From Pseudomonadota bacterium (GTDB lineage Bacteria; Pseudomonadota; Gammaproteobacteria; Burkholderiales; Burkholderiaceae_C): 44,082 bases of DNA. Location: contig JAKANU010000001.1 in assembly GCA_021812315.1 (NCBI GenBank), positions 1 through 44,082 of the forward strand. Direction: 5' to 3'. The position numbers and the translations under genes were made by a program. The notes under the pieces were generated by a model that worked only from the letters and a program-made list of their open reading frames with translations, searched no databases and was not told the DNA's origin. Shown piece by piece: positions 1,269 to 42,097 of this stretch (position 1 is its first letter; the number at the start of each line of letters is the position of its first letter).

Positions 1269-1793
1269 ATGGAATACACCTTCACCCTTAAATACCGGCT
1301 GACGCCGGACGACGGCACCCCACACGAAGTGGCCGAACGCCTGGGCGCCGCGGGTTGCACCGATGCGCTGGTGGGCGTGGGCCTAAGCGGGCGGCTGGCG
1401 TTGGAATTTACCCGCGAGGCACCGTCGGCCGAGGCAGCGTTGCTGAGCGCGCTGACCGACGTGAAAACCGCTGTACCCCACGCGCAGCTGATCGAGGCCG
1501 CCCCGGACTTCGTGGGGCTGACCGATGTGGCCGAAGTGGTAGGCGTTACCCGGCAAAACCTGCGCAAGCTGATGCTGGGCTACAGCGCCAACTTTCCGCT
1601 GCCGGTGCACGAGGGCAGCGCCACGGTGTGGCATTTGGCCGACCTGCTGGAGTGGCTCAAGACCCGCGTGGCCTACCAGGTCGAGCCCACCACCCTGGCC
1701 GTGGCCCAGGCCACCAAGCAAATCAACCTGGCCAAGCTGGCCCTGCAAATTGCGCCATCCACCACGCAAGAAGTCCATGCGCTGCTGGTATAA
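1269..1793 (+). CDS. Putative antitoxin / DNA-binding protein with C-terminal AlpA/excisionase-like HTH
   Basis: VGLTDVAEVVGVTRQNLRKL..FPLPV..VWHLADLLEWL is AlpA-like. RBS AAGGA, 2 bp after the upstream stop. Confidence 0.65.
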   Translation: MEYTFTLKYRLTPDDGTPHEVAERLGAAGCTDALVGVGLSGRLALEFTREAPSAEAALLSALTDVKTAVPHAQLIEAAPDFVGLTDVAEVVGVTRQNLRKLMLGYSANFPLPVHEGSATVWHLADLLEWLKTRVAYQVEPTTLAVAQATKQINLAKLALQIAPSTTQEVHALLV

Positions 1794-1843
1794 AAATAGT
1801 AGCACCCCACGCAGGCTGCACGGGCGCTGCAGCCTGATTCGAC
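1787..1843 (+). repeat. ~58 bp dispersed motif, family A (GCTA-N9-TAGC), intergenic copy
   Basis: Colinear with the reverse complement of 4253-4311, including an exact 20-mer GCTGCACGGGCGCTGCAGCC (1815-1834 vs 4264-4283). Confidence 0.8.
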
Positions 1844-1844
1844 T

Positions 1845-3086
1845 ATGAAGATTCTGCAAATCATCCCCACCCTCGACCCCAAGGCGGGCGGCCCGGTAGA
1901 AGGGCTTATCCAGCAGGGTATTGAGATGGAGCGCATGGGCCACGAGCCGCAAACGCTGTGTCTGGATGCGCCTGGTACGCCCATGGACCTGCGGCTGGCG
2001 TCGGCGGCGGTGTATCTGCTGGGGCCTGCTTACCTGAGATATGGCCTGGCGCCGCGGCTGGAGCCCTGGCTGCGCGAGCACGGGCGCAAGTTTGACGTGC
2101 TCATCATCCACGGCATGTGGGGCTACCACGGACTGTGCGCGGCCACGGTGGCGCGGCAGCTGGGCTTGCCGTATGTGATTTTTCTGCACGGCATGCTGGA
2201 CCCGTGGTTTGCCCGCCAGTACCCGCTCAAGCACCTCAAGAAGTGGTTGTATTGGCCGTGGGCAGAGTACCGCACGCTGCGCGATGCGCGGCTGGTGCTG
2301 TTTACCACGGCCGAAGAGCTGCGGCTGGCGCGGCAGTCGTTTTGGCTGTACCGCGCCCGCGAACGGCTGGTGGGCTACGGCATCCGCGAGCGCGAGCTGC
2401 CCCCCGGGCACGCGCGCGAGGCCTTTTTGCAGCGCTTTGCGCACCTGCGGCACACGCGCAACCTGTTGTACTTGTCGCGCATACACCCCAAAAAGGGGTG
2501 CGATTTGCTGATTGCGGCCTTTGCCAAGGTGGCCGCGCAAGACCCGGCGCTGCACCTGGTGCTGGCCGGCCCGGGCGATGCCGACTGGGTGGCGCGGCTG
2601 CAGGCGCAGGCGGCCCAGCTGGGGGTGCAGGCGCGCGTCACGTTTACCGGGATGGTGCAGGGCGAGGCCAAGTGGGGCGCCTACGACGCGGCCGATGCCT
2701 TTGTGCTGCCGTCGCACCAGGAGAACTTTGGTATTGTGGTGGCCGAGGCGCTGGCCTCCGGCGTGCCGGTGCTGACTACCCACCAGGTCAACATCTGGCG
2801 CGAGGTGCAGCAAGGGGGTGCGGGCATAATCCACCCCGACACGCAGGCCGGCGCGGACCAGTTGCTTACCGACTGGCTGGCGCTGGCGCCCGAGCAAAAA
2901 ACTGCCATGAGGGCGCAGGCGCAGCTGTGTTTTCAAAAGCATTTCAAGGTGCAGACGGTGACGCAACATTTGCTGGCCGCCCTGCACGACGCGGTGGCCC
3001 AGAACCCGCCACCGCGACATACGTTTGTGGGTTCGCCGTTCAAAGGGCGGCGCAGTGTAGGAGTGGTTGGTGATGACGGTGTTTAG
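1845..3086 (+). CDS. Glycosyltransferase family 4
   Basis: GGP N-terminal motif, LSRIHPKKG, and LPSHQENFGIVVAEALASGVPV (E-X7-E). The C-terminal tail overlaps the next gene. Confidence 0.92.
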   Translation: MKILQIIPTLDPKAGGPVEGLIQQGIEMERMGHEPQTLCLDAPGTPMDLRLASAAVYLLGPAYLRYGLAPRLEPWLREHGRKFDVLIIHGMWGYHGLCAATVARQLGLPYVIFLHGMLDPWFARQYPLKHLKKWLYWPWAEYRTLRDARLVLFTTAEELRLARQSFWLYRARERLVGYGIRERELPPGHAREAFLQRFAHLRHTRNLLYLSRIHPKKGCDLLIAAFAKVAAQDPALHLVLAGPGDADWVARLQAQAAQLGVQARVTFTGMVQGEAKWGAYDAADAFVLPSHQENFGIVVAEALASGVPVLTTHQVNIWREVQQGGAGIIHPDTQAGADQLLTDWLALAPEQKTAMRAQAQLCFQKHFKVQTVTQHLLAALHDAVAQNPPPRHTFVGSPFKGRRSVGVVGDDGV

Positions 3087-3426
3087 GCGTAACGCCTCGA
3101 TGTGGGCTTATGTAGCTTTGTCGCTGGGTATAGCGGCGTTGGACACCTGGCGCGGCGTGCGCTTTAGCCTGTGGGCGCTGCACTTTGTGCCTATGGGGTT
3201 GGCGGCCTGGAACCTGGGTGCAAAGGCTGGCTGCACCATGGCCGGGCTTGCCGTAGGCCTGCTGTGTGCCGAGGCGTTTTGGGCCGGGCACCCGTACAGC
3301 AGCGTTTACAACCTGGCGTGGTCTTATGCCTCCAAGGCCGTGGCGTATGCGTTGGTGGTGTACTTTGTAAGTGCCCTGCGCAAGAAGGAAGTGGTTCGTG
3401 CCTATGTGCCGCCGCGTGGCAGTTAG
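3073..3426 (+). CDS. Small multi-pass membrane protein (DUF4118-like sensor-type TM bundle, tentative)
   Basis: About 3-4 hydrophobic segments. AGGAG at 3059-3063 precedes ATG 3073. Confidence 0.55.
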   Translation: MTVFRRNASMWAYVALSLGIAALDTWRGVRFSLWALHFVPMGLAAWNLGAKAGCTMAGLAVGLLCAEAFWAGHPYSSVYNLAWSYASKAVAYALVVYFVSALRKKEVVRAYVPPRGS

Positions 3427-3429
3427 TTC

Positions 3430-3485
3430 GCTACATATTTGCTAGCAGCCAACGCAAGCTGCACAACGGTTGGCCGATGATTTTC
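3430..3485 (+). repeat. Family A motif, intergenic copy
   Basis: GCTACATATTTGCTAGCAGCCAACGCAAGCTGCAC is colinear with the other family A copies. Confidence 0.7.
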
Positions 3486-3487
3486 TT

Positions 3488-4768
3488 ATGAAGATCCTGC
3501 TCTGCGGCATCAACTTCGCGCCGGAGCTGACCGGCATCGGCAAATACACTGGCGAGTTGGCGGCGTGGTTGGCCGCGCGGGGGCATGCGGTGCGCGTGGT
3601 CACTGCCCCGCCGTATTACCCGGCCTGGGCAGTCAGCGCTGGCTACAGCGCCAGCACGTGGCGCACCGAGCGCTGGCAGGGCGTGCAGGTGCTGCGCTGC
3701 CCGCTGTGGGTGCCGCGCCAGCCTGGTGGCATTAAGCGGCTGTTGCACCTGGCCAGCTTTGCCTTGAGCTCTTTACCGGTGCTGCTGCGTCAGGTTTTTT
3801 GGCGGCCCGATGTGGTGTGGGTGGTGGAGCCTGCGCTGTTTTGTGCGCCCACTGCGCTGGCGGTAGCGCGGCTGTGTGGCGCCAAGGCCTGGCTGCATGT
3901 ACAGGACTTTGAGGTTGATGCGGCGTTTGACTTGGGTCTGCTGCGCGGTGCTTGGCTGCGCCGCGTGGTGACGGGGGCCGAGCGCTGGCTGATGCGAGGG
4001 TTTGACGTGGTGTCAACTATTTCGCAGAGGATGCATCAGCGGCTGCTGGACAAGGGGGTGGATGCTGCAAAGGCAAGGCTCGCGGTGAACTGGGTGGACT
4101 TGGCGGCTTTCGCCGCTGGGGCACATGGATTGCCGCGCTACGCTCGCAATGACGGGTACCGGGCTGAGCTGGGCATTGCGCCTGATGCGGTGGTGGCGCT
4201 TTACAGCGGCAACATGGGTGGCAAGCAGGGCCTGGAAATTCTTGCGGAAATTGCATCAAATATGGCTGCAGCGCCCGTGCAGCAAGCGCAGGCTGCTACT
4301 GATTCCGTAGCGGTCGATTTTGTATTTTGTGGCGACGGTGTTGGACGTGCTGACTTGGTCAGGCGCTGCAAGGGCTTGCCCAATGTTCGCTTTCTGGATC
4401 TGCAACCGACCGAGCGGTTGCCAGACTTGCTGGCGATGGCCGACATCCACCTGCTACCCCAGCGCGCCGACGCGGCCGATTTGGTGATGCCCAGCAAGCT
4501 CACAGGCATGCTGGCCAGCGCTCGCCCGGTGGTGGCCACCGCCCATGAGGGCACGGAGCTGGCAACGGTGGTGCAAAACTGTGGTGTGGTGGTGCCACCC
4601 GAAGACCCCGCTGCGTTTGCCAAGGCGGTGCGCGCCCTGGCCGCAGACCCGGCGCTGCGCCAACGCCTGGGTGCCGCTGGCTACGTGTATGCCCAGACGC
4701 ACCTGGACCGGGAGGCGGTGTTGGGGCGGTTTGAGACGGATGTGCTGGGGCTGCTTGGAGGCCAATAG
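3488..4768 (+). CDS. wcaI: Colanic-acid-type glycosyltransferase WcaI (GT4)
   Basis: MKILLCGINFAPELTGIGKYTGE, APPYYPAW, RCPLWVP and AADLVMPSKLTGMLAS are WcaI signature segments. Confidence 0.9.
   Translation: MKILLCGINFAPELTGIGKYTGELAAWLAARGHAVRVVTAPPYYPAWAVSAGYSASTWRTERWQGVQVLRCPLWVPRQPGGIKRLLHLASFALSSLPVLLRQVFWRPDVVWVVEPALFCAPTALAVARLCGAKAWLHVQDFEVDAAFDLGLLRGAWLRRVVTGAERWLMRGFDVVSTISQRMHQRLLDKGVDAAKARLAVNWVDLAAFAAGAHGLPRYARNDGYRAELGIAPDAVVALYSGNMGGKQGLEILAEIASNMAAAPVQQAQAATDSVAVDFVFCGDGVGRADLVRRCKGLPNVRFLDLQPTERLPDLLAMADIHLLPQRADAADLVMPSKLTGMLASARPVVATAHEGTELATVVQNCGVVVPPEDPAAFAKAVRALAADPALRQRLGAAGYVYAQTHLDREAVLGRFETDVLGLLGGQ
4125..4154 (-). repeat. CGTC-type REP half-element (family B), in frame inside wcaI
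   Basis: ATGGATTGCCGCGCTACGCTCGCAATGACG matches 20290-20324 and translates as HGLPRYARND. Confidence 0.75.
4253..4311 (-). repeat. Family A motif, in frame inside wcaI
   Basis: GCTA-N9-TAGC at 4295-4311. Its reverse complement aligns with 1787-1843. It encodes ASNMAAAPVQQAQAATDSVA. Confidence 0.8.
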
Positions 4769-4817
4769 TTCGTCGTCCCTGAAAAGCCCCCACAACCCGC
4801 ATAAACATTGAGTTGTA

Positions 4818-5024
4818 GTGGTGAAAAGCGCCAAACAAGACGGCCCACAAGACATTACGGTGCATGGCAAATCGGTGGCCGTCGTGCTGTCACGCGATTT
4901 GTTTGATCAGCTCAGTGGCAATTCGCAATCCCTGGTGGAGTTCATGCAGCGCTCCCCCTTGTTTGGCCTGGATGACCTGACTTTCGAGCGCGATCAAAGT
5001 TTGACGCGTGAGCTCGGTCTTTGA
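4818..5024 (+). pseudogene. Phd/YefM antitoxin, N-terminally truncated
   Basis: VVKSAKQDGPQDITVHGKSVAVV is the Phd core. The usual N-terminal xEAKxxLS segment and an RBS are absent. Confidence 0.7.
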
Positions 5025-5225
5025 GTTATCTGATTGATACCAATGTGATTTCTGAGTTGCGTCGCAAGCAGCCAGAAATTCGAAAAGGCATTGCAACCGT
5101 GGGCGATGCCAGCCATCGACAGTTTGTTGGTCGCGACGGCTCTGCATCACAACCTGAGCTTGGTCACCCGCAATGTGCGTGACTTTGCAGGCTTTGGTTT
5201 GAACATCATCAATCCGTGGGATTAA
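5021..5225 (+). pseudogene. vapC: VapC (PIN) toxin pseudogene with internal deletions and a frameshift
   Basis: TTG start overlaps the antitoxin stop. It reads MSYLIDTNVISELRRKQP|EIRKGI, then continues in another frame as MPAIDSLLVATALHHNLSLVTRNVRDFAGFGLNIINPWD*. Total length is only 205 nt. Confidence 0.85.
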
Positions 5226-5234
5226 ATCAAGGTA

Positions 5235-5255
5235 ATTAAGGGGGCGCTACCCTTT
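5235..5255 (+). repeat. Short palindromic junction site, family C
   Basis: ATTAAGGGGGCGCTACCCTTT resembles 6176-6197 and 7770-7791. Confidence 0.55.
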
Positions 5256-5295
5256 GTGGGTAAGCATGCCGGCCCTCTGCCCGCATAATGCAGGC

Positions 5296-5598
5296 ATGCG
5301 ACTAAGCACTGATCAAATCCAGGCAATACGCCATGCTGCCACGGCAGCTTTTGGTGTGGACGCTGCGGTGTGGCTATTCGGCTCGCGCGTGGACGACGGC
5401 AAAAAAGGCGGCGACATTGACCTGCTCGTGCGCCCCAGCGCCGCTGCGGCAGACCAGCCATTTGCCAAGAAAGTCAAAATGCTCAGCCTGCTGGAGCGCG
5501 AACTCGGCGAGCGCAAGATTGACCTTGTCGTTGAACAGCCCGGCGACCCCCGATCCATTGTGATGGTGGCTCATGCCACCGGCATCCAAATCCAATGA
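5296..5598 (+). CDS. Minimal nucleotidyltransferase (MNT) antitoxin
   Basis: MRLSTDQ start, VWLFGSRVDDGKKGGDIDLLV (GS..DxD) and KIDLVV. About 100 aa. Confidence 0.88.
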   Translation: MRLSTDQIQAIRHAATAAFGVDAAVWLFGSRVDDGKKGGDIDLLVRPSAAAADQPFAKKVKMLSLLERELGERKIDLVVEQPGDPRSIVMVAHATGIQIQ

Positions 5599-6068
5599 AG
5601 CCCACGCCAGACCAACTGGCACTGCAGCAAATCGACGCCGTGTGCCAAACCCACGCTGAGACGCTTGACGAAGTCCTGCAGGATATGCATAGGCGTGCGC
5701 TCACGCTTGCCGACTACAGCCATCTGTCCAAAGAAGACCGCCGTTTGCTCGACCAGTTTGCCTACCGCTACACCCGGCTACAAGACGACATCGGTGCCCG
5801 GCTGATGCCCGCGGTGCTCAAAGCCCTGGGCGAAGACGTTGGCCCCATGTCTGCCATCGACCGCTTTACCCGCCTTGAACAACTCGGCTGGCTGAGCAGC
5901 GCAGACGAATGGCTTGCCACGCGGCAAGTGGGCAACCAGTTTGCCCACGACTACCCCGACAGCGCCGCAGAACGGTTTGATCGCCTGCAAGCCGCCACCC
6001 AGGCTGCGCGCCAATTGCTGACCACGATGCACCAATTCAGAAGCAAACTGGCGTCAGACTTCAACTAA
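5595..6068 (+). CDS. HEPN-domain toxin partner of the MNT (catalytic R replaced by G)
   Basis: ATGA overlap with the MNT gene. DQFAYRYTRLQD segment. GNQFAHDY sits where RX4HXY is expected. Confidence 0.8.
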   Translation: MKPTPDQLALQQIDAVCQTHAETLDEVLQDMHRRALTLADYSHLSKEDRRLLDQFAYRYTRLQDDIGARLMPAVLKALGEDVGPMSAIDRFTRLEQLGWLSSADEWLATRQVGNQFAHDYPDSAAERFDRLQAATQAARQLLTTMHQFRSKLASDFN

Positions 6069-6127
6069 CCGAAGAGGCGCGAAAAAAGCAGCCACTCTTG
6101 TCTGTCCCCCTTCCTTGCGGGGACCAC

Positions 6128-6176
6128 GATGCTATTGAATAGATAGCTGCCCACGAAGGCTGCATGGGCACTAAAC
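6128..6176 (+). repeat. Family A motif, intergenic copy truncated at a family C site
   Basis: GATGCTATTGAATAGATAGC is 18/20 identical to the reverse complement of 38158-38177. It continues GGCTGCATGGGCACT like the 1787 copy. Confidence 0.75.
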
Positions 6177-6197
6177 ATTAAAGGGGACGTTACCCAT
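6176..6197 (+). repeat. Family C site, left of the Fic gene
   Basis: CATTAAAGGGGACGTTACCC is 18/20 identical to 7770-7789 in direct orientation. Confidence 0.7.
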
Positions 6198-6285
6198 TTA
6201 TTGAGGCGCACGTTTTTGACCTGATCGAGCCGAATATCAATTTACGCGACAATACGAAGCCGTTAACACCAGTAAAAACGACAAA

Positions 6286-7836: not shown

Positions 7837-7838
7837 CC

Positions 7839-8252
7839 ATGACTGATCGACTGGCCAAAAACTTGTTGCTGTTGCAACTGTTGGCGTTGTTGGCAGGCAC
7901 GCAGATGCCGGGGGCTTGGCGTGCCGCAGCATTGACAGAGCTGGGCCTGGGCGGTGGCATATCGTCGTGGGCGCATTTTGTCTTGTTTGGCGGTATGGCC
8001 GCCTTGGCCTACGCCCGGCCGCTGGCCTGGCCGCTGGTGCGGGTGGTATTGGTGGCGTTGGGGCTGGCTTTGCTGACCGAGGGGCTACAGTTTTTTGCAC
8101 AAGACCGGCACCCGCGTTGGCTGGATGTTGATATCGACATGGCCGGCGCTGCGGCCGGGTTGCTGGTGGTGACCCTCGCCCGCATGGCCCGGGCTCTGCG
8201 CGCGCGCCTGAAGTTTGTACTGAAATCTGCCCCCTATGACGCAAGCGACTGA
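7839..8252 (+). CDS. VanZ family membrane protein
   Basis: AHFVLFGGMA and TEGLQFFAQDRHPRWLDV follow the VanZ pattern H..E..Q..R..D. Hydrophobic helices. Confidence 0.8.
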   Translation: MTDRLAKNLLLLQLLALLAGTQMPGAWRAAALTELGLGGGISSWAHFVLFGGMAALAYARPLAWPLVRVVLVALGLALLTEGLQFFAQDRHPRWLDVDIDMAGAAAGLLVVTLARMARALRARLKFVLKSAPYDASD

Positions 8253-8958
8253 ACCCAAACAAGCCTTCCCTTACAAACCCCCCACCGCCGAGATCAGGGC
8301 CCGCTACGCGCATATTTTTGACCTGACCGAGCCGCTGGCGCCCCGGTTTTTCAAGTCTGCGTTTGACAAGCTGTTGGCGGCAGTCGTGTTGCTGGCGGCG
8401 GTGCCGGTTTTTGTGTTGCTCAAGCTGGCGTACTTGGTGGAGGGCTGGTTGCTGCCCGACAACGCCGGGCCGATGTTTTTTTATTACAACGCGGTCAGCG
8501 CCGGGCGCGTCTTCCCCAAATACAAGATGCGCCTGATCAAGATGAAATACATCGAGCCCGAGGGCGCCAGGCGGCACGACTGGATTGCCTTTTCAGCCGA
8601 GTGGACGCCCGAGAGCCGCACCCATGTGGGCGAGTTTGTGAAAAAGTTTTACCTCGACGAATTGCCCCAGTTTTTCAGCGTGCTAAAGGGCGACATGAGC
8701 GTGGTTGGCCCGCGCCCTTTGGCCATATTGCATTACGAGCGCGATAAGGCGCAGGGCAACGTGACCCGGTTTTTGTTGCGCGGCGGCTTGCTCGGGCTGG
8801 GGCACATCAACAAAGGCACGTCAGAGATGGGCAACCCCATTTATGAGTACGAGTACGTTGACCAGTACATCAAACGCACATCCTTCGGGCTGCTGCTGCT
8901 CGATTTGCGGATCATCTGGCGCGGCTTCTTGGTCATCATCAAGGGCGGCGGGCATTGA
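8236..8958 (+). CDS. Monotopic phosphoglycosyl transferase (priming sugar transferase, Bac_transf family)
   Basis: KSAFD followed by a re-entrant helix, and LDELPQFFSVLKGDMSVVGPRP. Other motifs are divergent. Confidence 0.85.
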   Translation: MTQATEPKQAFPYKPPTAEIRARYAHIFDLTEPLAPRFFKSAFDKLLAAVVLLAAVPVFVLLKLAYLVEGWLLPDNAGPMFFYYNAVSAGRVFPKYKMRLIKMKYIEPEGARRHDWIAFSAEWTPESRTHVGEFVKKFYLDELPQFFSVLKGDMSVVGPRPLAILHYERDKAQGNVTRFLLRGGLLGLGHINKGTSEMGNPIYEYEYVDQYIKRTSFGLLLLDLRIIWRGFLVIIKGGGH

Positions 8959-9060: not shown

Positions 9061-9078
9061 TGCCCCCAAAAAAGCTTC

Positions 9079-9107: not shown

Positions 9108-9164
9108 GTTTTCGTGCTGCTGGGTGAACGAGCCCGGAAGGCGGCTTTTGGAGGGAATACAGAT

Positions 9165-15695: not shown

Positions 15696-16847
15696 ATGGG
15701 TTCAGTGAGCATCCGTGTTGCGCTGGGCATCGCGGCCACGGCATTGGCGCTGGCTTTGGGCTGGCTGGCGTGGGGCTACAACCTGGAGCGCGCCTGCACG
15801 CTGGGTCAGTGGCCCGAGTTGCCTTCTTGCGCCAGCCCGACCAACGATGTGCAGGCACAGGCGAGTGCGCTGCGCAAACGCATTGCGCGCAACCCCGGGG
15901 ACTCCGAGGCGTGGATCAATCTGGCGATGCTGGAGCAGGGCGCGGCGCTGGAGATGGCAACGAAGCTGGCCGGGCAGGATTATCGTGTCCAGCGCTTGCA
16001 GGCGGGCCGTGCCATTGAGCGGCAGCAGTGGCCACAGGCCGTCGGTTGGTTGGTGCGGCTGGTGCAGGACAACCGCGACGCCCCGGCCGCGTTGGCGTTG
16101 GCGAAGATGGTGCTCGAGCCCAGCGCGTTGGCGGCGATGATTGCGCAACTTGAAAATGACTCGCGCTGGCTGGAGCCGGTCATCAACTCGATGCCGCAGG
16201 CCCGCGTACCGGTGATCAAGGCGATGCCGCTGGTGGTGCGTGCGCTGGCGCTGAAAGCGGTTCCGCCCGCCCTGTTGCAGCGCCTGTTGACGGGGTTGAA
16301 AGCCGAGGGCCAATGGATGGAGGCGCACGCTTTGTGGCTGGCCTCGCTGGGGCATTCGGTGCCGCTGATATTCAACGGCGATTTTGAGCAGGGCTTCATG
16401 CCTGGCGGCTTTGATTGGGAAGTGCTGCCGGTGCTGCCATCGAGGGCCGGGGCGCTGGTGCATCAGGCCACCGCCAGCGGGCGTGGCGGCGTGCTCGAGG
16501 TTGACTTCACCGGCCGCGCGGTGACCTTGCCGATCGTGCGCCAGTATGTGATGTTGATGGGCAACCGCTATACGCTGAGCGGAGAATTCATGACGATGCG
16601 CTTGCGTACCGAGCAGGGCCTGACCTGGGCGCTGCGCTGCGTGGTGGGTGGCCGCGAAGTGGCGCATACGCCACCGTTGAAGGACACCTCCGGCCAGTGG
16701 CAGCCGATGGAACTTGCGTTTGATGTGCCGGCGGGTTGTGGGCCGGCGCTGGTTCTGCAATTGCAAACGGTGTTGCCCGAGGAGGCGCTTGGCGGCCTGC
16801 GCGGGGAGGTTCGTTTTGACAATCTGCAATTGCAGGTGCGACCATGA
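15696..16847 (+). CDS. Membrane-anchored periplasmic protein, TPR-like helices plus C-terminal CBM_4_9-like beta domain
   Basis: N-terminal TM segment, RNPGDSEAWINLA (TPR-like), and LIFNGDFE...EVRFDNLQL (CBM-like ends). Confidence 0.65.
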   Translation: MGSVSIRVALGIAATALALALGWLAWGYNLERACTLGQWPELPSCASPTNDVQAQASALRKRIARNPGDSEAWINLAMLEQGAALEMATKLAGQDYRVQRLQAGRAIERQQWPQAVGWLVRLVQDNRDAPAALALAKMVLEPSALAAMIAQLENDSRWLEPVINSMPQARVPVIKAMPLVVRALALKAVPPALLQRLLTGLKAEGQWMEAHALWLASLGHSVPLIFNGDFEQGFMPGGFDWEVLPVLPSRAGALVHQATASGRGGVLEVDFTGRAVTLPIVRQYVMLMGNRYTLSGEFMTMRLRTEQGLTWALRCVVGGREVAHTPPLKDTSGQWQPMELAFDVPAGCGPALVLQLQTVLPEEALGGLRGEVRFDNLQLQVRP

Positions 16848-17638
16848 TCGACCTGCATAGTCACATTTTGCCCGGCATCGATGACGGCGCGCCGACGCTG
16901 GAGGTGGCGCTGGAGATGGCACGGCTGGCGGTTGGCGATGGTATTCGGACCATGGCCTGCACGCCGCATATTTATCCCGGGCTGTACATGAACGACGCGC
17001 CGGGCATTGCGACTGCACGTGTGGCGTTGCAACGCGAACTCGACGCACGCGGCATCGGCTTGCAACTGGTCAGCGGTGCCGATGTGCATCTGGTGCCGGG
17101 TTTGCTTGAGGGCCTGCGCGGCGGAACCATACCGACGCTGCATGGCTCGCGCTACCTGTTGCTGGAGCCACCGCACCATGTGGCCCCGCCGCGGTTTGCC
17201 GAATCGGTACGGCAACTGATGATGGCGGACTATGTGCCGGTGATCACGCATCCGGAGCGGCTGAGCTGGATCGAAACGCATTACAAGGTTTTTGTCGAAC
17301 TCGTCGGCCAGGGTGCCTGGATGCAGGTGACAGCCGGTGCCGTGGCAGGGCATTTTGGGCAACGCCCGCGGTATTGGGGCGAGAAGTTTCTGGGCGAGGG
17401 CCACACGCATATTCTCGCCACCGACGCGCACGCGAGTTCCGGGCGAATTCCCTGCTTGTCGCAAGGGCGCGTGGTGGCCGAGCGGCTGCTCGGTGCCGAC
17501 GAGGCGCGCCGGCTGGTGCAGGAACGTCCGCAGGCGATTGTGGACAATCTTGCCCCCAACGCCTGCCCCCTACCGCCCCGAAGTGAAGCACCGCGCAGTT
17601 GGTGGCAAAGGCTGTGGCCAGGCCGGGGCGAGGCGTGA
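16844..17638 (+). CDS. PHP-family protein tyrosine phosphatase (CpsB/CapC/YwqE type)
   Basis: MIDLHSHILPGIDDGA, CTPH, ITHPER and ATDAH metal-binding motifs. Confidence 0.93.
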   Translation: MIDLHSHILPGIDDGAPTLEVALEMARLAVGDGIRTMACTPHIYPGLYMNDAPGIATARVALQRELDARGIGLQLVSGADVHLVPGLLEGLRGGTIPTLHGSRYLLLEPPHHVAPPRFAESVRQLMMADYVPVITHPERLSWIETHYKVFVELVGQGAWMQVTAGAVAGHFGQRPRYWGEKFLGEGHTHILATDAHASSGRIPCLSQGRVVAERLLGADEARRLVQERPQAIVDNLAPNACPLPPRSEAPRSWWQRLWPGRGEA

Positions 17639-17656
17639 TCGCCTGAAGCAACGCGC

Positions 17657-18400
17657 ATGTTCTCGAAGATCGTGATCTTTCTGGTCTCGCCGCTGGGTGC
17701 CGCGCTTTGTTTGGGTGCCCTGGCGTTGCTGCTGGCCTGGCGCAAGTGCTTGCGCGCCGGCTTCAGGGTCGGGCTGCTGGCTCTGCTGTGGTTGTGGCTC
17801 TGGTCAACCCCGGTGCCAAGCCTGTGGCTGCGCGGCTGGATTGAGGACGAGTATTTACCGCTGCCATTGTCGGCCATTGCACCCGCGCAGGCGCTGGTGG
17901 TGCTGGGTGGCGGCGTTGCTCCGGCCACCGGTCGATCGGCCGACATCAACCTGTATGCTGCGGCTGACCGTGTTTGGTATGCGGCCAGGCTTTTTCATGC
18001 GGGCAAGGCGCCGTTGTTGCTCCTTAGCGGGGGCAGCGTGCCCGGGCGCGATCTGTTTTCGGAAGCCCGTGCCATGGCCATCTTGCTGCATGACTTGGGT
18101 GTGCCGGAGCAGGCTTTGCTGCTGGAAGAGGCCAGTCACAACACCCGAGAGAATGCGGCGTTCAGTGCGTCGTTGCTCAAGGCGCGTGGCATCGAGCGCA
18201 TTGTGCTGGTGACCTCGGCCCTGCATATGCCGCGTGCCCAGGCGTTGTTTGCCGCGCAGGGGTTGCAGGTCGTGCCCGCACCGACCGACTTTGAGGCCCA
18301 TTTGCGACCCCCTGGTCTTCAGGCCTGGTTACCCGATGCGCAGGCTTTGGAGGGCAGCGGCCGGGCGATGAAGGAATGGGTTGGCAAGTGGTCACGATGA
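17657..18400 (+). CDS. YdcF/DUF218 (ElyC-like) membrane protein
   Basis: Two N-terminal TM segments, LVVLGGG, LLSGG, EEASHNTRENA and LVTSALHMPRA. Confidence 0.9.
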   Translation: MFSKIVIFLVSPLGAALCLGALALLLAWRKCLRAGFRVGLLALLWLWLWSTPVPSLWLRGWIEDEYLPLPLSAIAPAQALVVLGGGVAPATGRSADINLYAAADRVWYAARLFHAGKAPLLLLSGGSVPGRDLFSEARAMAILLHDLGVPEQALLLEEASHNTRENAAFSASLLKARGIERIVLVTSALHMPRAQALFAAQGLQVVPAPTDFEAHLRPPGLQAWLPDAQALEGSGRAMKEWVGKWSR

Positions 18401-20205: not shown

Positions 20206-20324
20206 GTCATCGCGGCGCCACTTTTCACGGTTATCGCGACCCACACCGGTTGTCATCGCGAGCGGAGCGTGGCGATCCATGCCTTCATGTGGATTGCCGC
20301 GTCGCTTTGCTGGTTGCAATGACG
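20206..20324 (+). repeat. CGTC-type REP doublet hairpin (family B) with two partial tandem starts
   Basis: GTCATCGCGAGCGGAGCGTGGCGATCCA (20252) pairs with TGGATTGCCGCG..GCAATGACG (20290-20324). Extra GTCATCGCG at 20206 and GTTATCGCG at 20230. Confidence 0.8.
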
Positions 20325-20352
20325 GACCTTCCTTCTCAGTGACGGGGATGGG

Positions 20353-32573: not shown

Positions 32574-32607
32574 TGCTGGCATTGATCATTCCAACAGAAG
32601 AGCGTTC

Positions 32608-34488: not shown

Positions 34489-34500
34489 GGAGTTGCCGCC

Positions 34501-35454: not shown

Positions 35455-35468
35455 GGACCCCTTCAGCC

Positions 35469-37916
35469 ATGGCCACTCAGCCATCTTCTGCGCAACGGGC
35501 GGTTCTTGCCAGGGAGACGCGCAAGCGCTTTCTCAGTGAGCTCGCAGGTTCGATGGCGGAGCTCGGTGGCGCCGTCTATGAGCGCCTCACCAATCTGCTC
35601 GATGAAGCGGCGCCGTCGCGCGAGATGCAGGACCGGCGCGACGCCTGGACCGTGTATCGCGAGCAGCGTCAGGCCTGGGTTGATGGCACGCTGAGCGCCT
35701 GGGAGGCGTTGGCTACACCAACCCCGGCGACACACGCCAAACCGCTGGAAATGCAGTTGGAGCTGGTCGGTACCGACACGGTCGAGAACAAAATCGTTGC
35801 TTCCCGGCTGGCACAGGGCATGCTTGAAGCAGTGAAGGCCGAGCTCGACGACCTGCGCTTGCGCATGAAGCAGCTCGATGGCGAAGTTGCGGTCGAACAA
35901 AAGGACATTCTCGAACCCGAAGTCCTGGCCTTGGCGTTGGTGGAACGTTGGGCCGAAGTCGGCCTGCAGCGAAGCGTCTGGCCGATGATTACCGAAGTGG
36001 TGCAAAAGCAGTTGTCGCAGGCGCTGCAGCGGGGCTACGCAAATTGCAACGCATTCCTGATCGGGCAAGGCGTGCTGCCAACCATTGATTTGGCGCATCG
36101 CGTCAGGCGCGCCGCCCCGGCTCCCGCCCGCACGGCCTCGGCGGCCGGGCACGGGTTTGCCGATACCATCGATGGCGCTGAGTTCCGCAATACCAGCGGG
36201 CGCCCGGGCTTGCAGCCCGACGGTTCCCCTTCCGGAGCGGGTTCAGGTTCCGGCGGCTCCTTTGCCCGCACCGGATCCGGCTGGGACGAGGAAACCCGCC
36301 CGGGTAACAACCTTGCCGGCGGTCCCGGAAGTCGGCAGTTTGCTCACACGCCTGGCGTCCCGCATGGGGGCTACGCCAGTGCGGCCGAAGAAACACGGAT
36401 GATGACTTCGACCACGCCACTGGCGCGGGCACGCAGCCGCGCGCTGGGGGTGATGGGTCAGCTCAAGCGCCTGCTTGCGGGTGCGGGAGGCGACAACGTT
36501 GATGGCTCGGGGCATGCGCCGCCGTCCCCGGAACTGGCAGCGGCCATCGCCGTCAGGCCAGGAGCAGACTCCGCAGGAAGTTCTGACGGAGGCACGATCA
36601 GGCACGAATACGGCGCGGAGGCTGTGACGCGCGTGGCCAGCGAGTTGCGCGAGCGCAGCATCGAGCTCAAGAGCAAGGCACAGACCAAGAATGAAAAGGC
36701 GACGATCGAGATTGTGGCCTTGATGTTTCAGGCGATCTTGCAGGAAAGCCGGATCCCGGCCGCCATCCGCGTCTGGTTTGCGCGCCTGCAAATGCCGGTG
36801 CTCAGGGTGGCGCTGGCGGAGCCGGATTTTTTCGGAACCCTGGATCACCCGGCGCGCCAGTTGATCGATCGCATGGGCTCCTGCGTCATGGGGTTTGACG
36901 CCAGTGGCATCAGTGGCAGTGCGCTGGAGGCTGAAATCAAGCGCGTGGTGCAGGTCATCGAACAGTATCCCGAGACGGGTAAACGCGTTTTCCAGCTGGT
37001 CTACAAGGAATTCCAGAAGTTTCTCGAGCAATTCCTGACCGACAAGGCCAGCACCCAAAAGGTGGTTGGTGTGGCGCAGCAAGTCGAGCAGAAGGAAACG
37101 CTGACGATCCAGTACACGATCGAAATGCGCAACATGCTCAAGGAACTCCCGGTGCGCGACGAGATACGCCAGTTCCTGTTCAAGGTCTGGGCTGAGGTGC
37201 TGGCGGTGGCGGCGGTGCGGCGTGGTCCGCAACATGCCGAGACACAGACGATGAAGAAGGTCTCGACCGAGCTGGTGTGGGCGGCCAGCGCCAAGCCCAA
37301 TCGCAGCGATCGTGCACGGGTGATTGCAGAGTTGCCGCAGTTGCTGCAGAAGCTGCGCGCCGGGATGTCGCTGTTGGGCCTGCCCGCTGGCGAACAGGAG
37401 GCGCATATCAAGATTGTCAGCGCCACGCTGGCGGATGCCTTTTTGTCCAAGACGCAAGCCATTTCCCAGAAGCAGATCACGGCCATGACGCAAAGGCTGG
37501 AAAACCTCGAGGCGTTTGTCGGCGAGGCTGGCCCGGGTGATTTGCCGCTGGATGCCCAGAGCATCGAAATGATGGTCGGGGTCGACGCCTCGATGATCGA
37601 GGTCGTTGCCGACGGTGGCTCCAAGCCCGGTGCGGCGATGCTGGCCTGGGCGCAGGAGTTGCAACCGGGCGCGTGGTTCACTCTGGACCATAGCGGTCGG
37701 GTGGCCCAGGTTCAGTTCGTCTGGCGCAGCGAAGGCAAACACTTGAATTTGTTCGCCAGCGCCGACGGGCGCAGTTATCTGCTGCAGGCCGGACGCCTGG
37801 CGGCGTATCTGCAGGCCGGCCTGCTGCTGCCTCAGGAGCAGGAGACGCTGACGGTGCGCGCCACGCGCGACGCCCTGGGCAAGATCGAGGCCAATCCGGA
37901 GCGCTTGCTCGGGTAG
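35469..37916 (+). CDS. DUF1631 family protein
   Basis: IEIVALMFQAIL..RLQMPVLRVAL..FF...HPARQLIDR pattern. Helical, 815 aa. Confidence 0.8.
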   Translation: MATQPSSAQRAVLARETRKRFLSELAGSMAELGGAVYERLTNLLDEAAPSREMQDRRDAWTVYREQRQAWVDGTLSAWEALATPTPATHAKPLEMQLELVGTDTVENKIVASRLAQGMLEAVKAELDDLRLRMKQLDGEVAVEQKDILEPEVLALALVERWAEVGLQRSVWPMITEVVQKQLSQALQRGYANCNAFLIGQGVLPTIDLAHRVRRAAPAPARTASAAGHGFADTIDGAEFRNTSGRPGLQPDGSPSGAGSGSGGSFARTGSGWDEETRPGNNLAGGPGSRQFAHTPGVPHGGYASAAEETRMMTSTTPLARARSRALGVMGQLKRLLAGAGGDNVDGSGHAPPSPELAAAIAVRPGADSAGSSDGGTIRHEYGAEAVTRVASELRERSIELKSKAQTKNEKATIEIVALMFQAILQESRIPAAIRVWFARLQMPVLRVALAEPDFFGTLDHPARQLIDRMGSCVMGFDASGISGSALEAEIKRVVQVIEQYPETGKRVFQLVYKEFQKFLEQFLTDKASTQKVVGVAQQVEQKETLTIQYTIEMRNMLKELPVRDEIRQFLFKVWAEVLAVAAVRRGPQHAETQTMKKVSTELVWAASAKPNRSDRARVIAELPQLLQKLRAGMSLLGLPAGEQEAHIKIVSATLADAFLSKTQAISQKQITAMTQRLENLEAFVGEAGPGDLPLDAQSIEMMVGVDASMIEVVADGGSKPGAAMLAWAQELQPGAWFTLDHSGRVAQVQFVWRSEGKHLNLFASADGRSYLLQAGRLAAYLQAGLLLPQEQETLTVRATRDALGKIEANPERLLG

Positions 37917-37937
37917 GCGCACGCGAGCGAACGGCAT

Positions 37938-39122
37938 TCAGACTTGCGTGCGGCTCAGGCGCTGGAACAATCCGCCCGGCAAGCGTTTGAGCGTGCCGTC
38001 GAGTTCGAGAGACATCAGCTGTGCCTGCAGTTCGGGCGTCGACAGGCCACTTCGTGCCTGCAGTGCATCGAGTCCGACGGGGTCAAAACCGAGTGCATCG
38101 AGCAACCCGCTTTCATGTGGAAAAGAGCCTGAAGCGCTTTGTTGAAAGGCATCGTGTGCTATCGAATCAATAGCATCTTGGGAGCCGTCGACGAGCCTCA
38201 GCTCTTCCAGAATATCGGCGACCGACTCCACCAGTTTGGCGCCCTGGCGGATCAGCGCATGGCAGCCGCGTGACTGCGGCGAGTGAATCGAACCGGGAAT
38301 TGCGAAGACCTCCCGACCCTGTTCGGCGGCCAGTCGCGCGGTGATCAGCGAGCCCGATTTCAAGGCCGCTTCAACGACCAGGGTGCCCTGCGCCAGACCG
38401 GCAATCAGTCGATTGCGCCTGGGGAAGTTCGTCATCAGGGCCGGTGTGCCCAGTGGATATTCGCTCAGCAGCAGGCCATTGGTGGCAATGCGTCGCGCCA
38501 GATCGAGATGTTGCTTCGGATACACGCGGTCGACGCCTGTGCCAAGCACTGCCACCGTGGCCAAGAAGGGACTGTCCGGCGCCGCCCCCTGCAGTGCGCC
38601 CTCATGAGCCGCAGCGTCGATTCCCAAGGCCAGGCCGGAGACCACGGTCAGCCCGGCCTGCACGAGTGCCTTGGCAAAGTGGCGGGCGTTGTCCGCGCCT
38701 TGCGCGGTTGGGTTGCGGCTGCCGACCACGGCAATGCTGTCGGGGAGAGAGGCGTTTGCCACTCCAGGCGCCGGAAAAGTCCCGTTGCCCAGCAGGTACA
38801 GCAGCAGTGGAGGGTCGTCGATCCGCAGCAGGGCGGCAGGATACTGGGCGTCGCCCAGAGCAAGGATCCGGTGTCTGAGAGCATCGTTGTTCGAGGCCTG
38901 CAGCCAGTCCCAGGACATATCGAGTTGCGCGGGCAACTGCGCGGGTGCACTGCGCAGCGCGCCGGCCTGCGCCGCAGAGACCACTTGTTCGAGTGCCTGT
39001 GTGGACTGGCCAAATATCGCCTCGGGCAGGGCAAAGGCGCTCAGCAGCCGGCGTGCACTGGCGTTGCCGATACCCGGGGTCAGGCTCAGGCGCAGCCAGC
39101 TACCGAGTTCGGTCCGATCCAT
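37938..39122 (-). CDS. dprA: DNA-processing protein DprA
   Basis: IAVVGSRNPT, VSGLALGIDAAAH, FPRRNRLIAG, VVEAALKSGSLITA and a C-terminal winged helix. Confidence 0.95.
   Translation of the reverse strand: MDRTELGSWLRLSLTPGIGNASARRLLSAFALPEAIFGQSTQALEQVVSAAQAGALRSAPAQLPAQLDMSWDWLQASNNDALRHRILALGDAQYPAALLRIDDPPLLLYLLGNGTFPAPGVANASLPDSIAVVGSRNPTAQGADNARHFAKALVQAGLTVVSGLALGIDAAAHEGALQGAAPDSPFLATVAVLGTGVDRVYPKQHLDLARRIATNGLLLSEYPLGTPALMTNFPRRNRLIAGLAQGTLVVEAALKSGSLITARLAAEQGREVFAIPGSIHSPQSRGCHALIRQGAKLVESVADILEELRLVDGSQDAIDSIAHDAFQQSASGSFPHESGLLDALGFDPVGLDALQARSGLSTPELQAQLMSLELDGTLKRLPGGLFQRLSRTQV
38119..38177 (-). repeat. Family A motif, in frame inside the dprA linker
   Basis: GCTA-N9-TAGC at 38158-38174, 18/20 identical to 6128-6147. 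It encodes DAIDSIAHDAFQQSASGSF. Confidence 0.7.
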
Positions 39123-39151
39123 TGCGCGGACTCGCCTTGGCCGGGCAACGC

Positions 39152-40366
39152 TCAGCGTGGGTTGATCAGGCGGTCGCCGACCTTGACGCCATCGGTGATT
39201 TCGAGCACCAGCCCGTAGGAGAGCTTTTCGAAGGTGCGAAACACCATCAGCAGACCGTTTCGTTCATCGGGCAATTTGATCGGCGTGCGGGCTTCGTCGG
39301 TCTTGTCGATCACGCGTTGGCCATGCTTGAGGATGGCCAGTACCTGGCCATTGTCTATTCCATCGCGGCGGCCACGGTTGATTGCCACGACCTGATTTTG
39401 CCCGGCGTTGGCCACCGCGTTGCCGTAGATGGAAATGATGAGTGCGTCGACCTTGCCGGCCGGAGCATGCGGGGTATAGCTCTGAAACTCACGCGGCGGC
39501 TCGGGTAACAGCCGGTCGCCGGTGCGGGCCTCTTCGCGGGATGTCACCAGGTCGATGGTTGCCGGCACGAGCTCGGTCACCGGATTGCCCTCCTTGTTGG
39601 TGGAGGTTTCAGTGCTTTCGCCCCGCACCAGGACCGCCTTGCCCACATACTGCGCTTCGTAGCCGAGCACCTCCCCGGTCACCGGGTCTTTCAGGGGCGT
39701 GGCGTTGCGAAAGATTCGCAGCATTTGCTGCTTTTGCCCGGGCTCATCCTTGACCGGCACATCGGCCGGACCGCGAATGTAGGCCCGATCACCGCGCGAG
39801 AGCAGAACGCGCCCTTCCTGTGCCGCCACGATGCGCGGTGCGAGCTGGAGTTGGTTTTCCTCGACGATCACCGGCTGCGTCAGGAAGGGTTCGATCAAAT
39901 GGCTCTTGAGCGTGGTCAGGCTTTCTTCGCCCAGCGGCTCGGAGCGCACGCGCGGCGACAGGCGCACGGTCTCGGTGGGCATCTGCGCGCCGTCCGGGGC
40001 GGTGGTGCGCAGCCGGGCACGACCATCGATTTTCTCGAGGTATAGCTTCTGCCCGGGGTAGATCAGATGCGGGTTCCTGATTTCGTTGAGGTTCATGCCC
40101 CACAACTCGGGCCAGCGCCACGGCTTCTTGAGGTACATGCCAGAGATTGCCCACAGCGTGTCGCCGCGGCGAACCGTATAGGTATCCGGAGCATTGGCGG
40201 CGAGTTCGCTCAGCGGGACACCGGCTTGGGCAACTTCGTTGGCAATGGCCTTTTGCTGCGCGGTCACCGGGTATGGCTGTGCCAGGCACGGCTGCACCAG
40301 CCAGCCGCTGCCGAGCACCGCCAGCGCCGCGCCGGCGAAGCTTGCGACTTTGGATTTCACCATCAT
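39152..40366 (-). CDS. LysM peptidoglycan-binding protein (TsaP-like)
   Basis: Signal peptide and LysM YTVRRGDTLWAIS..PWRWPELW..NPHLIYPG. Located between dprA and def. Start uncertain (40363-40378). Confidence 0.85.
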   Translation of the reverse strand: MMVKSKVASFAGAALAVLGSGWLVQPCLAQPYPVTAQQKAIANEVAQAGVPLSELAANAPDTYTVRRGDTLWAISGMYLKKPWRWPELWGMNLNEIRNPHLIYPGQKLYLEKIDGRARLRTTAPDGAQMPTETVRLSPRVRSEPLGEESLTTLKSHLIEPFLTQPVIVEENQLQLAPRIVAAQEGRVLLSRGDRAYIRGPADVPVKDEPGQKQQMLRIFRNATPLKDPVTGEVLGYEAQYVGKAVLVRGESTETSTNKEGNPVTELVPATIDLVTSREEARTGDRLLPEPPREFQSYTPHAPAGKVDALIISIYGNAVANAGQNQVVAINRGRRDGIDNGQVLAILKHGQRVIDKTDEARTPIKLPDERNGLLMVFRTFEKLSYGLVLEITDGVKVGDRLINPR

Positions 40367-40622
40367 GTCTATTGTCATAGTTGGTAGCACTGCAAATGCC
40401 TCTCAAGCGGTTCGCGAGTCTGCGCTTACACCCCGCAGGGTCACGGAAAATCTTGATAAATCACACGCGATTCTGCGCTCAAGCCATTGATTGAGCAACG
40501 TTTTTGGCAGAGAACAGGTGCCCGCGGGTAGAAAAGTGGCGAAAATAGCGACATCCTGAAACCTGGCGTTACAGACCGCGCCTGCACCACCAGCATGCCA
40601 AGTCTGTACTCGAACTTAGAAC

Positions 40623-41132
40623 ATGGCCCTATTATCCATCCTTTGCTTTCCAGACCCCCGGCTGCACAAGCTGGCCAAACCTGTGGCTGACGTGGATGCG
40701 CGCGTGCGCAGGCTTGTCGCCGACATGCTCGAGACCATGTACGCGGCCAAGGGCATTGGGCTGGCGGCCACGCAGGTCGACGTGCATGAGCGAGTGATCG
40801 TCATCGATGTCTCCGATGAGCGCGACCAGCCGCAGGTTTTCATCAATCCGCAGCTCGTCTGGACCAGTGAGCAAACGCATCTCAACGAGGAAGGTTGTCT
40901 GTCGGTGCCCGGAATTTATGACGGCGTGCAACGGTTTGATGCCGTCACCGTGAAGGCGCTTGACGTTGATGGAGGGGAGCGTGTGGTCGAGGCCACGGAC
41001 CTGCTCTCGGTCTGTCTGCAACATGAGATGGATCATCTGCTGGGCAAGGTTTTTGTGGAGTATCTGTCGCCGCTCAAGCGCAGTCGCATCAAGAAGAAAA
41101 TGCTGAAGGCGCAACGCGAGGACGCGTCGTGA
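40623..41132 (+). CDS. def: Peptide deformylase
   Basis: [13 protein letters not shown] and QHEMDH motifs. Confidence 0.97.
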
Positions 41133-42097
41133 GGTTGATCTTTGCCGGCACGCCCGAGTTTGCCCGCACGGCATTGGAGCAACTGCACGGCGCGGGCCAC
41201 GAGATCGCCCTGGTGCTGACGCAGCCCGACCGTCCCGGCGGGCGTGGACTGCGCTTGCAGGCTTCTGCGGTCAAGCGGTTCGCCCAGGAGAACGGTCTGG
41301 CGATCGCCCAGCCGCGCAGTTTGCGGGTGGACGGCAAATACGTCGACGATGCGGTGGCCGCGGGTGCGTTGATCAAGGCTGCGCAGGCCCAGGCGATGGT
41401 GGTGGCAGCCTACGGCCTGATGCTGCCGCAGTGGGTACTCGATGTCCCCGACAAGGGCTGCTTCAACGTCCATGCCTCGCTGCTGCCGCGCTGGCGCGGT
41501 GCCGCGCCGATTCAGCGCGCCATCGAAGCTGGGGACGCGCACAGCGGTGTGACGATCATGCAGATGGATGCCGGCCTGGATACCGGTGCCATGCTGATGG
41601 CGCATGCCACGCCGATCGCGGCCAGTGATACCGCGGGCACCTTGCATGACCGACTCGCGGCGCTGGGCGCGCGTTTGTTGCTGTTGACCCTGGAGAAGGC
41701 TGCAGCCGGCACGCTGCGCCCGGTGGCGCAAGAGGCTCAGGCAGCGACTTACGCAAGGAAGGTGGACAAGGCGGAAGCGGCCATCGACTGGGCACAGCCG
41801 GCGCAGGTCATCGTGCGGCGCGTGCGGGCTTTCAATCCGGCACCGGGCGCGCACTGCAGCTGGCACGGACAGATGCTGAAGGTATGGGCCGCCGCAGCCT
41901 GCGACGCGGTTCCTGGCGCCACCCCGGATTGTGGGACCATTATGGCTGTAGAGCCCGAAGGGATTGCTGTTGCCGCTATGAATTCGATAGTAGTGTTGAC
42001 ACAGTTGCAGCGCCCGGGAGGCCGCGCTCTGGCGGCGGAGGAGTTTGTCCGCGGCTGCGACCTGCGCGCGGGCATGGCTTTTGACCGGCGCGGCTGA
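41129..42097 (+). CDS. fmt: Methionyl-tRNA formyltransferase
   Basis: [34 protein letters not shown] and GLDTG. Confidence 0.97.
41941..41991 (-). repeat. Family A motif overlaid on fmt coding sequence
   Basis: 31/50 ungapped identity to 4261-4310, with GCTA-N9-TAG conserved at the same spacing. Confidence 0.55.

Follow-up and report, generated by a model that had tools for sequence, protein, structure and literature searches.

A dispersed 65-bp motif accommodated by coding sequence in Comamonadaceae is a putative self-DNA uptake signal

The 44,082-nucleotide stretch analysed here (henceforth the window; assembly GCA_021812315.1, contig JAKANU010000001.1, a Pseudomonadota bacterium) raises the question of what places one motif both between genes and within them, and what keeps it there. 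A sequence-only reading of the window had described six copies of a dispersed motif of ~58 bp, built on GCTA-N9-TAGC and including one overlaid on the housekeeping gene fmt. All six copies were recovered (Table 1), scoring 33–56 bits on a matrix derived from the whole genome, far above chance, and no copies beyond the six were found when the window was scanned with that matrix. Exact GCTA-N9-TAGC occurs four times in the window against a mean of 0.15 in shuffled sequence (0 of 100 shuffles reached four), and accounts for four of the six copies; the other two read GGTA...TAGC at 1787 and, on the + strand, GCTA...TAGT in fmt. The copies divide evenly between the strands, with three on each, and the coordinates first given to the minus-strand copies correspond to the distal end of the arm. 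At about 65 bp, the unit is larger than had been claimed, and the copy at 1787, taken to be intergenic, overlaps the stop codon of the open reading frame (ORF) at 1269-1793.

Table 1 Motif copies and host genes in the window. Positions are those of the window.
Feature	Position	Strand	Details
Motif copy	1785..1851	+	51.2 bits; core GGTA-N9-TAGC at 1787-1803; covers stop of ORF 1269-1793 and start of glycosyltransferase at 1845 (ORFs, Pfam)
Motif copy	3428..3494	+	42.9 bits; exact core 3430-3446; in gap upstream of wcaI-like glycosyltransferase
Motif copy	4247..4313	-	56.4 bits; core 4295-4311; antisense within wcaI-like gene (3488-4768)
Motif copy	6129..6195	+	33.4 bits; core 6131-6147; intergenic, nucleotidyltransferase pair on one side, Fic gene on the other (Pfam)
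Motif copy	38110..38176	-	40.9 bits; core 38158-38174; sense; overlay; in dprA linker, ahead of winged-helix domain
Motif copy	41927..41993	-	40.4 bits; core 41975-41991; antisense in Fmt C-terminal domain; gapless overlay
Host gene: group 4 glycosyltransferase	3488..4768	+	Pfam PF13579/PF13692; name wcaI from the sequence-only reading
Host gene: dprA	37938..39122	-	Pfam PF02481 and PF17782
Host gene: fmt	41129..42097	+	Pfam PF00551/PF02911; PDB 1FMT, E 1.1e-84

The genome (3.07 Mb, 61% GC) contains 214 exact cores, compared to 0–12 at each of 24 other spacer lengths (0 to 24). Orienting these cores yielded an asymmetric matrix of 67 columns and 40.5 bits, with the consensus nYGCTAYnRWWWYnRTAGCKSnYnRYGCWnnnnnnRYRRGSnYTnSnRSSnnWWW. 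At a cut-off of at least 16 bits, the matrix detects 346 sites in the genome and none in its reverse. One of the 346 duplicates another through a 156-bp contig overlap (a pair 97% identical), leaving 345. The information in a motif can be compared with the information needed to locate its sites, and here the 40.5 bits present contrast with 14.1 bits needed for 346 sites. Three units, spaced roughly two helical turns apart, make up the motif: the inverted core YGCTAY-N7-RTAGC, which is A/T-rich around its centre at position 9 (unit A, 21.8 bits); a GC-flanked unit centred at 32 (unit B, 12.3 bits); and an A/T-centred unit at about 52.5 (unit C, 7.0 bits). Core and arm occur together, with 324 of 337 core-only matches lying within full sites (13 outside, against 14 in the null) and all 167 arm-only matches of at least 20 bits doing likewise. 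No excess of weak sites was seen in the low-score tail, a claim limited to "no excess" because the reversed-sequence null loses dinucleotide direction and the observed tails fell below it.

The strongest dependencies between columns join adjacent bases. Watson-Crick pairing equals expectation in six candidate stem registers and in the core, which argues that a hairpin is not selected, and the RNA hairpin reading was rejected for this lack of stem covariation; Rfam gave 0 matches. Within genes all six reading frames are used, 155 of the 208 in-gene sites lying in the two frames that read A-I/T-x-x-I/V-A, and sense and antisense orientations are equally frequent (104 each). The site would thus appear to be recognised at the DNA level and not as RNA or peptide.

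Placement was assessed against 3,125 genes called with our own gene caller. The 346 sites divide into 208 inside genes, 61 across a gene end and 77 intergenic, while random windows fall 83% inside genes and 7% between them; non-coding DNA is therefore favoured (77 of 345 sites vs 7.4% expected). Density reaches 9–20 sites per 100 kb in genes 55–85% identical to those of the motif-poor relative G007, and drops to 0.9 per 100 kb in the most conserved genes (at least 85% identical) and to 1.4 per 100 kb in genes of low third-position GC content (0.55–0.65). Genes for repair, recombination and uptake contain 14 sites where 8.1 would be expected (P=0.04, on an incomplete gene list partly picked knowing the hosts). 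Host-gene names other than those supported by Pfam or PDB (window genes, transketolase, Fmt) are presumed from sequence signatures. In the relative G021, five sites lie within 3.8 kb around comEC.

Sites within genes appear to be kept by selection or drive. When each of 206 in-gene sites was synonymously recoded 300 times (two sites near gene ends being excluded), 204 beat every recoding, with means of 39.7 bits observed and -2.0 bits recoded. For fmt, 0 of 20,000 recodings reached the observed 40.4 bits (mean -3.2, maximum 29.6). Identity at fourfold third positions of fmt is 0.79 in the core and 0.49 in the rest of the gene; at a comEC site the third-position values are 0.71 against 0.49, the pairs compared not being independent in either case. 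At the corresponding fmt position, 14 of 24 genus genomes score at least 26 bits, and the core alanine codon is GCT in all 13 site-bearing fmt genes compared (of 14 such rows) vs 92 of 711 alanine codons there. One comEC site reaches 20 bits or more in 16 of 31 genomes, which span several genera. Across genera the sites keep their codon positions even where neutral positions are saturated.

The sequence-only reading had held that the fmt copy occupies the normal C-terminal strands without adding a loop, and this was borne out: the alignment to E. coli Fmt (1FMT) is gapless across the site, as are those to five of six other-family orthologues, the sixth having a single extra residue. Transketolase is likewise gapless across its site relative to 5VRB, with RVVSMPS inside the site. 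For a wider comparison, 2.11 Mb of G007 (2 sites) was used, to which 116 of the 208 in-gene sites could be aligned (83 of the remaining 92 had no orthologue and 9 were not covered). Net length change was zero at 83 sites and within 3 amino acids (aa) at 13, while 14 sites were longer and 6 shorter by at least 4 aa; control windows gave 86% net zero, 7% within 3 aa, 4% longer and 2.5% shorter. Protein identity to G007 is 41% within sites vs 67% elsewhere, part of which reflects a preference for variable regions. Orthologous windows in G007 score -32 vs -62 for controls, so G007 has probably lost the motif, retains traces of it and is not a clean outgroup.

In-frame insertion holds for the wcaI copy. 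The wcaI-like protein carries about 20 aa in place of about 10 (+10/+11 aa relative to four of four motif-free orthologues), and the dprA copy is a linker overlay, its linker being within about 2 aa of those in motif-free G007 and G019 and in the outgroup G029; the position scores at least 14 bits in 4 of 19 relatives' loci. A second dprA site, found in relatives, adds about 17–25 aa relative to G029 and shrinks where the motif has been lost. Such block insertions indicate that copying seeds at least some sites. Contigs from runs of the same study span the dprA and fmt copies with 0 differences, although they are not independent because they are possibly the source data themselves, and no junction bypassing a motif copy was seen among contigs aligned to the window.

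Insertions of this kind bring in the reading that the motif is a decayed mobile palindrome without present function, whether a miniature transposable element with inverted repeats (MITE), a repetitive extragenic palindromic (REP) sequence or a Rickettsia palindromic element (RPE). Rickettsia palindromic elements lie in frame in housekeeping proteins as net insertions of hairpin-forming sequence. The motif resembles them in its in-frame position in such proteins, and 7 of 116 aligned sites add 14–22 aa (one adds 22 aa), about motif length, as does the second dprA site; the preference for non-coding DNA and rare symmetric 104-bp pairs that resemble an inverted-end element also suit an old mobile palindrome. 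It differs in being length-neutral in 83 of 116 cases with no hairpin selected, and an RPE-type coding repeat was rejected with only those 7 sites adding at least 14 aa. No target-site duplication was found over 189 boundary pairs at lengths of 2, 3, 4, 5, 6, 8 and 9 (the duplicate site left out), the best case being a 4-mer in 5 of 135 non-coding copies. Young near-identical copies were absent, as were terminal inverted repeats at both ends, and a MITE was rejected on these three counts. Universal residues lie inside sites, as in transketolase, and sites persist at saturated third positions and vanish in motif-poor genomes. As the sole explanation, a relic palindrome is largely refuted and must be considered very improbable. 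The earlier proposal of a selected site accommodated by coding sequence, rather than a simple MITE, is supported by these comparisons, with the reader protein putative. Neither outcome named beforehand as refuting it was obtained, since the fmt match outscored its codon-randomised controls and the copies lack target-site duplications.

Elements of the REP/REPIN-RAYT type (REP doublets forming hairpins, with REP-associated tyrosine transposases), including those tagged GTAG/CGTC, share with the motif hundreds of lineage-restricted copies, a preference for convergent gaps and an RTAG adjoining a weakly self-complementary stretch. The motif differs from them in being mostly intragenic (208 of 346 sites), without stem covariation, near-identical copies, inverted doublets or a flanked RAYT gene, and this class was rejected. 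The single Y1_Tnp (RAYT-like) gene, at C131:6367-7065, adjoins a glutamate synthase-like gene and is syntenic in G007. It was rejected as a factor, being present in 36 of 36 genus genomes whatever the motif count and not flanked by the motif (nearest site about 5 kb away). The main text of PMC3733652 contains 0 occurrences of six Comamonadaceae/Burkholderiales names; its supplements, outside this scope, could list the motif.

A further reading is that an enzyme of reverse-transcriptase, retron or recombinase type rewrites chromosomal DNA from a template and refreshes look-alikes with no benefit to the cell. The lack of intermediates noted above (core-only outside sites 13 vs 14; arm-only 0 of 167) and the occurrence of both equal-length replacement and block insertion fit such writing. 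All four copies in the polysaccharide/toxin-antitoxin region (window 1785-6195) carry the hexamer GCTGCA (motif positions 29-34), which 16 of the 345 sites in the genome have; this sharing, noticed post hoc, also fits templated writing and points to local copying or to a donor that had a different variant. However, templated writing predicts even conservation, whereas conservation is strongly position-specific, and it predicts near-identical young copies, whereas nearest-neighbour identity is 0.629 vs 0.608 in shuffled columns. No long-range linkage marking subfamilies was seen, and a template locus was not found. This explanation is unlikely.

The distribution of the motif among relatives was examined by counting core matches. 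Of 36 other genus genomes, 17 have at least 34 matches, 5 have 15–24 and 14 have at most 11. Among 200 family genomes, 58 carry 29–640 matches, 5 carry 14–24 and 137 carry at most 9 (control maximum 11), and 24 of 24 genomes from other families show a background of 0–6. Named carriers among the loci listed are Acidovorax, Comamonas, Polaromonas, Rhodoferax, Simplicispira and Xylophilus, and the arm sequence varies between lineages. The score of the fmt site tracks the genome-wide count across 24 related genomes (Spearman 0.89), and all 8 motif-poor genomes score -22 or lower at fmt. A tree of Fmt, a single gene with motif columns removed, requires 6 state changes, at least 3 of them forced by well-supported branches. 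Sites have been lost genome-wide several times, all decaying together. Viral contigs contain 90 matching stretches vs 5 for the reversed pattern, and several of the 19 viral loci examined lie in long open frames without a homologue in this genome. At IMG/VR loci L069, L070, L071, L074 and L075 the sites fall in low-complexity linkers of very long open frames, L071 having three sites within 460 bp.

Taken together, the motif may be a double-stranded site read by a lineage-restricted protein complex, most probably a putative self-DNA uptake signal kept by molecular drive; we favour this reading at somewhat less than even confidence. Better-matching alleles would be preferentially taken up and recombined, which constitutes the drive. 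New sites may arise when a short strand that already bears the motif pairs with a sequence resembling it by chance, so that 30–66 bases are replaced or added. Double illegitimate recombination in short patches (SPDIR), which produces microindels of 3 to about 100 bp at microhomologies and becomes more frequent during transformation (10.1101/2023.11.22.568220), has been described with a fitting patch size and could apply to the motif. In genes, only in-frame, tolerated outcomes would persist, and codon and residue changes would then tune the sites. Joint decay in several lineages would be expected if the recognising factor or its specificity were lost. Uptake-type drive is favoured because one process would supply motif-bearing single strands and reward better alleles, and because it would also yield the 40-vs-14-bit excess, the core-gene bias and the wide range of copy numbers. 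The genomic logo of the uptake signal sequence (USS) likewise exceeds the real uptake bias (PMC3458573). Natural transformability is documented for Acidovorax temperans, A. facilis and V. eiseniae, and indirect evidence points to selective uptake in the last of these (PMC4212676).

The genomic behaviour of the motif is USS-like, and its membership of the class is putative. As with the USS of Pasteurellaceae and the DNA uptake sequences (DUS) of Neisseriaceae, copies number in the hundreds and are dispersed over both strands, about 60% of them in ORFs with a frame bias, overlaid without indels, biased to moderately conserved core genes, scarce in foreign genes and in the most conserved ones, varying between lineages and built of a core plus phased A/T tracts (PMC2817400, PMC3458573). 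The motif is set apart by its 65 bp and 40 bits vs 9–32 bp, its inverted core, its density of about one site per 9 kb, its lack of terminator hairpins, and its larger local changes to proteins with some block insertions; its uptake role and receptor are putative.

Several observations weigh against an uptake signal. Known uptake sequences measure 9–32 bp and often form terminator hairpins (PMC3458573, 10.1101/2025.10.24.684340), in contrast to a 65-bp motif without hairpins whose core is inverted like a cytoplasmic dimer's site. The occurrence of ComEC in 77 of 80 genomes suits uptake, but most motif-poor genomes also have it, its frame long and open; ComP_DUS-family pilins (69 of 80) and TfoX_N (54 of 80) do not track the motif either. 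Six named transformation genes of this genome hold only 2 sites in 8 kb, and no even spacing was found at the kilobase scale. For V. eiseniae, the supplement of a 2017 study lists one unrelated pair and, in the part covered, none of the motif's pentamer pairs (PMC5217627). The symmetric 104-bp pairs, together with the depletion of pairs closer than 300 bp, suit a wrapped intracellular complex at least as well. For a cytoplasmic wrapping protein, the inversion of the core, the spacing of two turns and these pairs make a case almost as strong as that for uptake.

Paired cores were sought across GTDB as two cores 40–70 nt apart, 70 being the upper bound of the pattern. Among the 80 loci listed, 13 are tail-to-tail pairs with a 69–70-nt spacer and a common central dyad, from Acidovorax, Comamonas, Simplicispira, Alicycliphilus, Xylophilus and other Burkholderiales. 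Polaromonas-type genomes in the same list have a second core 49–52 nt further on, listed matches in unrelated taxa are mostly simple tandem repeats without the arm, and the paired loci adjoin many different genes. In this genome the motif is one-ended: pairs closer than 300 bp are depleted (1 seen vs 11.9 expected), none is closer than 200 bp, and a post-hoc excess appears at 700–1000 bp (25 vs about 11). Five motif-rich genomes together show 3 pairs at spacers of 60–90. Tandem cores in the relative G178 scored below 14 bits and were dismissed as unrelated.

The close rival to an uptake signal is a DNA-binding protein of several subunits, cytoplasmic and dispensable, with a nucleoid-organising or topology-related role, that would wrap about 65–105 bp with a small benefit per site, rare ectopic copying seeding the sites and decay following loss of the protein. 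It is a real possibility, though on the unlikely side. The core is inverted, with T3 at 99% and A15 at 100%, a T-N11-A spacing that we take to be a LysR-type signature, and further units follow at about 22 bp. Tail-to-tail pairs, Polaromonas-type second cores and the depletion of close pairs fit such a protein, adjacent-base dependencies suggest shape reading, and divergent promoter regions are avoided (6 of 287 divergent vs 11 of 100 convergent gaps with a site, P=0.0006). Weighing on the other side are motif-rich counts of 29–640, wide for structural spacing; the lack of excess behind the most conserved genes (18 of 208 vs 35 of 378); and the coincidence of sites with lower protein identity, partly a variable-region preference. 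Nor is there a regional or strand pattern in the complete genome G020, which has 161 forward and 182 reverse matches; those listed spread over 0–3.1 Mb without a large gap, and exact matches extend up to 4.9 Mb. No replichore polarity or regional confinement was detected there, origin and terminus not having been located (the dif search missed the terminus).

Sites such as matS, SlmA and Noc sites, parS, KOPS and Chi are protein-bound, often in coding sequence, 8–16 bp long, and regional or polar. The motif differs in being long, non-polar and spread along the chromosome, and a site of the KOPS/Chi/matS/SlmA type was rejected on the G020 result. A LysR-type operator was also rejected: the T-N11-A box is present, yet sites are depleted in divergent gaps and ArgP, the LysR-type regulator profiled, does not track the motif, being found in motif-poor G023 and absent from motif-rich G087. 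The other candidate factors, nine in all with ArgP and the Y1_Tnp gene, fared no better. SlmA exceeded the cut-off in one of two motif-rich and one of three motif-poor genomes; KTSC is present in motif-poor G023; DnaE2 is present in motif-poor G008 and G023 and absent from motif-rich G116; HerA_C occurs in 5 of 5 genomes; and ComEC and ComP_DUS are spread over motif-rich and motif-poor genomes alike. TfoX_N was consistent in 5 of 5 genomes of a small panel and failed on the 80, being absent from motif-rich G075, G087, G090 and G116 and present in many motif-poor genomes. Two SlmA-like genes occur in this genome (C253, C408), which nevertheless has 0 matches to the E. coli SlmA site, and the SlmA match in the relative G005 has an internal TGA. 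Gene-content subtraction against G007 (2.11 Mb of about 2.8 Mb) leaves hundreds of candidates, and inspection of their N-termini by eye gave no clear lead.

Fragments of the motif have been reported before. Tong, Schliekelman and Mrazek gave them in 2017, unexplained, as "potential novel motifs" in three named genomes (PMC5217627). Their pair GCTTAT-N5-AAGCG in A. ebreus corresponds to motif positions 25-40, TGCTA-N8-GTAGC in R. ferrireducens to positions 0-17, and TAGCT-N32-ATTTG in P. naphthalenivorans to positions 14-55 (PMC5217627). These spaced pentamer pairs differ from the motif in being separate, mostly intergenic and not joined as one unit, and the parts of the paper covered do not discuss protein overlay, conserved sites or genome-wide loss (PMC5217627). 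In the full-text literature, subscription papers lying outside it, no description of the whole motif or of the protein overlay was found, no match to six exact sub-sequences of the motif, and nothing pairing Comamonadaceae with an uptake sequence.

No site falls in the 32 kb between 6200 and 38100 of the window, whereas the genome averages one per 8.9 kb. The wcaI-like gene also contains, in frame at 4128-4158 on the - strand, another repeat that is unrelated to the motif and presumably REP-like (GTCATTGCGAGC...GCAATCC); the protein is 5–7 aa longer there than three of four orthologues. It has 24 loose genome matches, including an inverted pair near 20252-20330, and it attracts a pile-up of contigs from other organisms. 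Three occurrences of the 15-bp direct repeat AAGGGGRCGYTACCC (at most 1 mismatch), at 5238, 6181 and 7775, bracket the nucleotidyltransferase pair and the Fic gene in the manner of cassette ends; contig C231 has another set of three at about 16720-18230, and the genome has 6 matches. At 4818-5225 a short antitoxin-like ORF is followed by an apparently broken PIN-like toxin gene in two fragments (5021-5225), as judged by eye.

Sequence-specific uptake signals have been described for two bacterial families (10.1101/2025.10.24.684340, PMC2817400, PMC3458573). In its boldest form, which we advance more tentatively than the uptake signal itself, the reading would be that Comamonadaceae hold a third, independently evolved self-DNA code: a 65-bp multi-part uptake or transfer signal that seeds itself through recombination of short patches, has altered the sequence of about 200 proteins per genome (Fmt, MutS, MutL, PolA and transketolase among them) and has repeatedly been switched off, leaving protein fossils. 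A third and much longer uptake signal in a major freshwater, soil and wastewater family would, if true, bear on the restriction of gene flow and on the origin of such signals. Close relatives with and without the motif constitute a natural experiment, and the question is directly testable because naturally transformable strains exist and relatives differ in the motif. Regardless of its reader, the site takes precedence over codon choice and over local protein sequence in about 7% of the genes called, and it explains the A-I/T-x-x-I/V-A patches and odd insertions in Comamonadaceae protein alignments.

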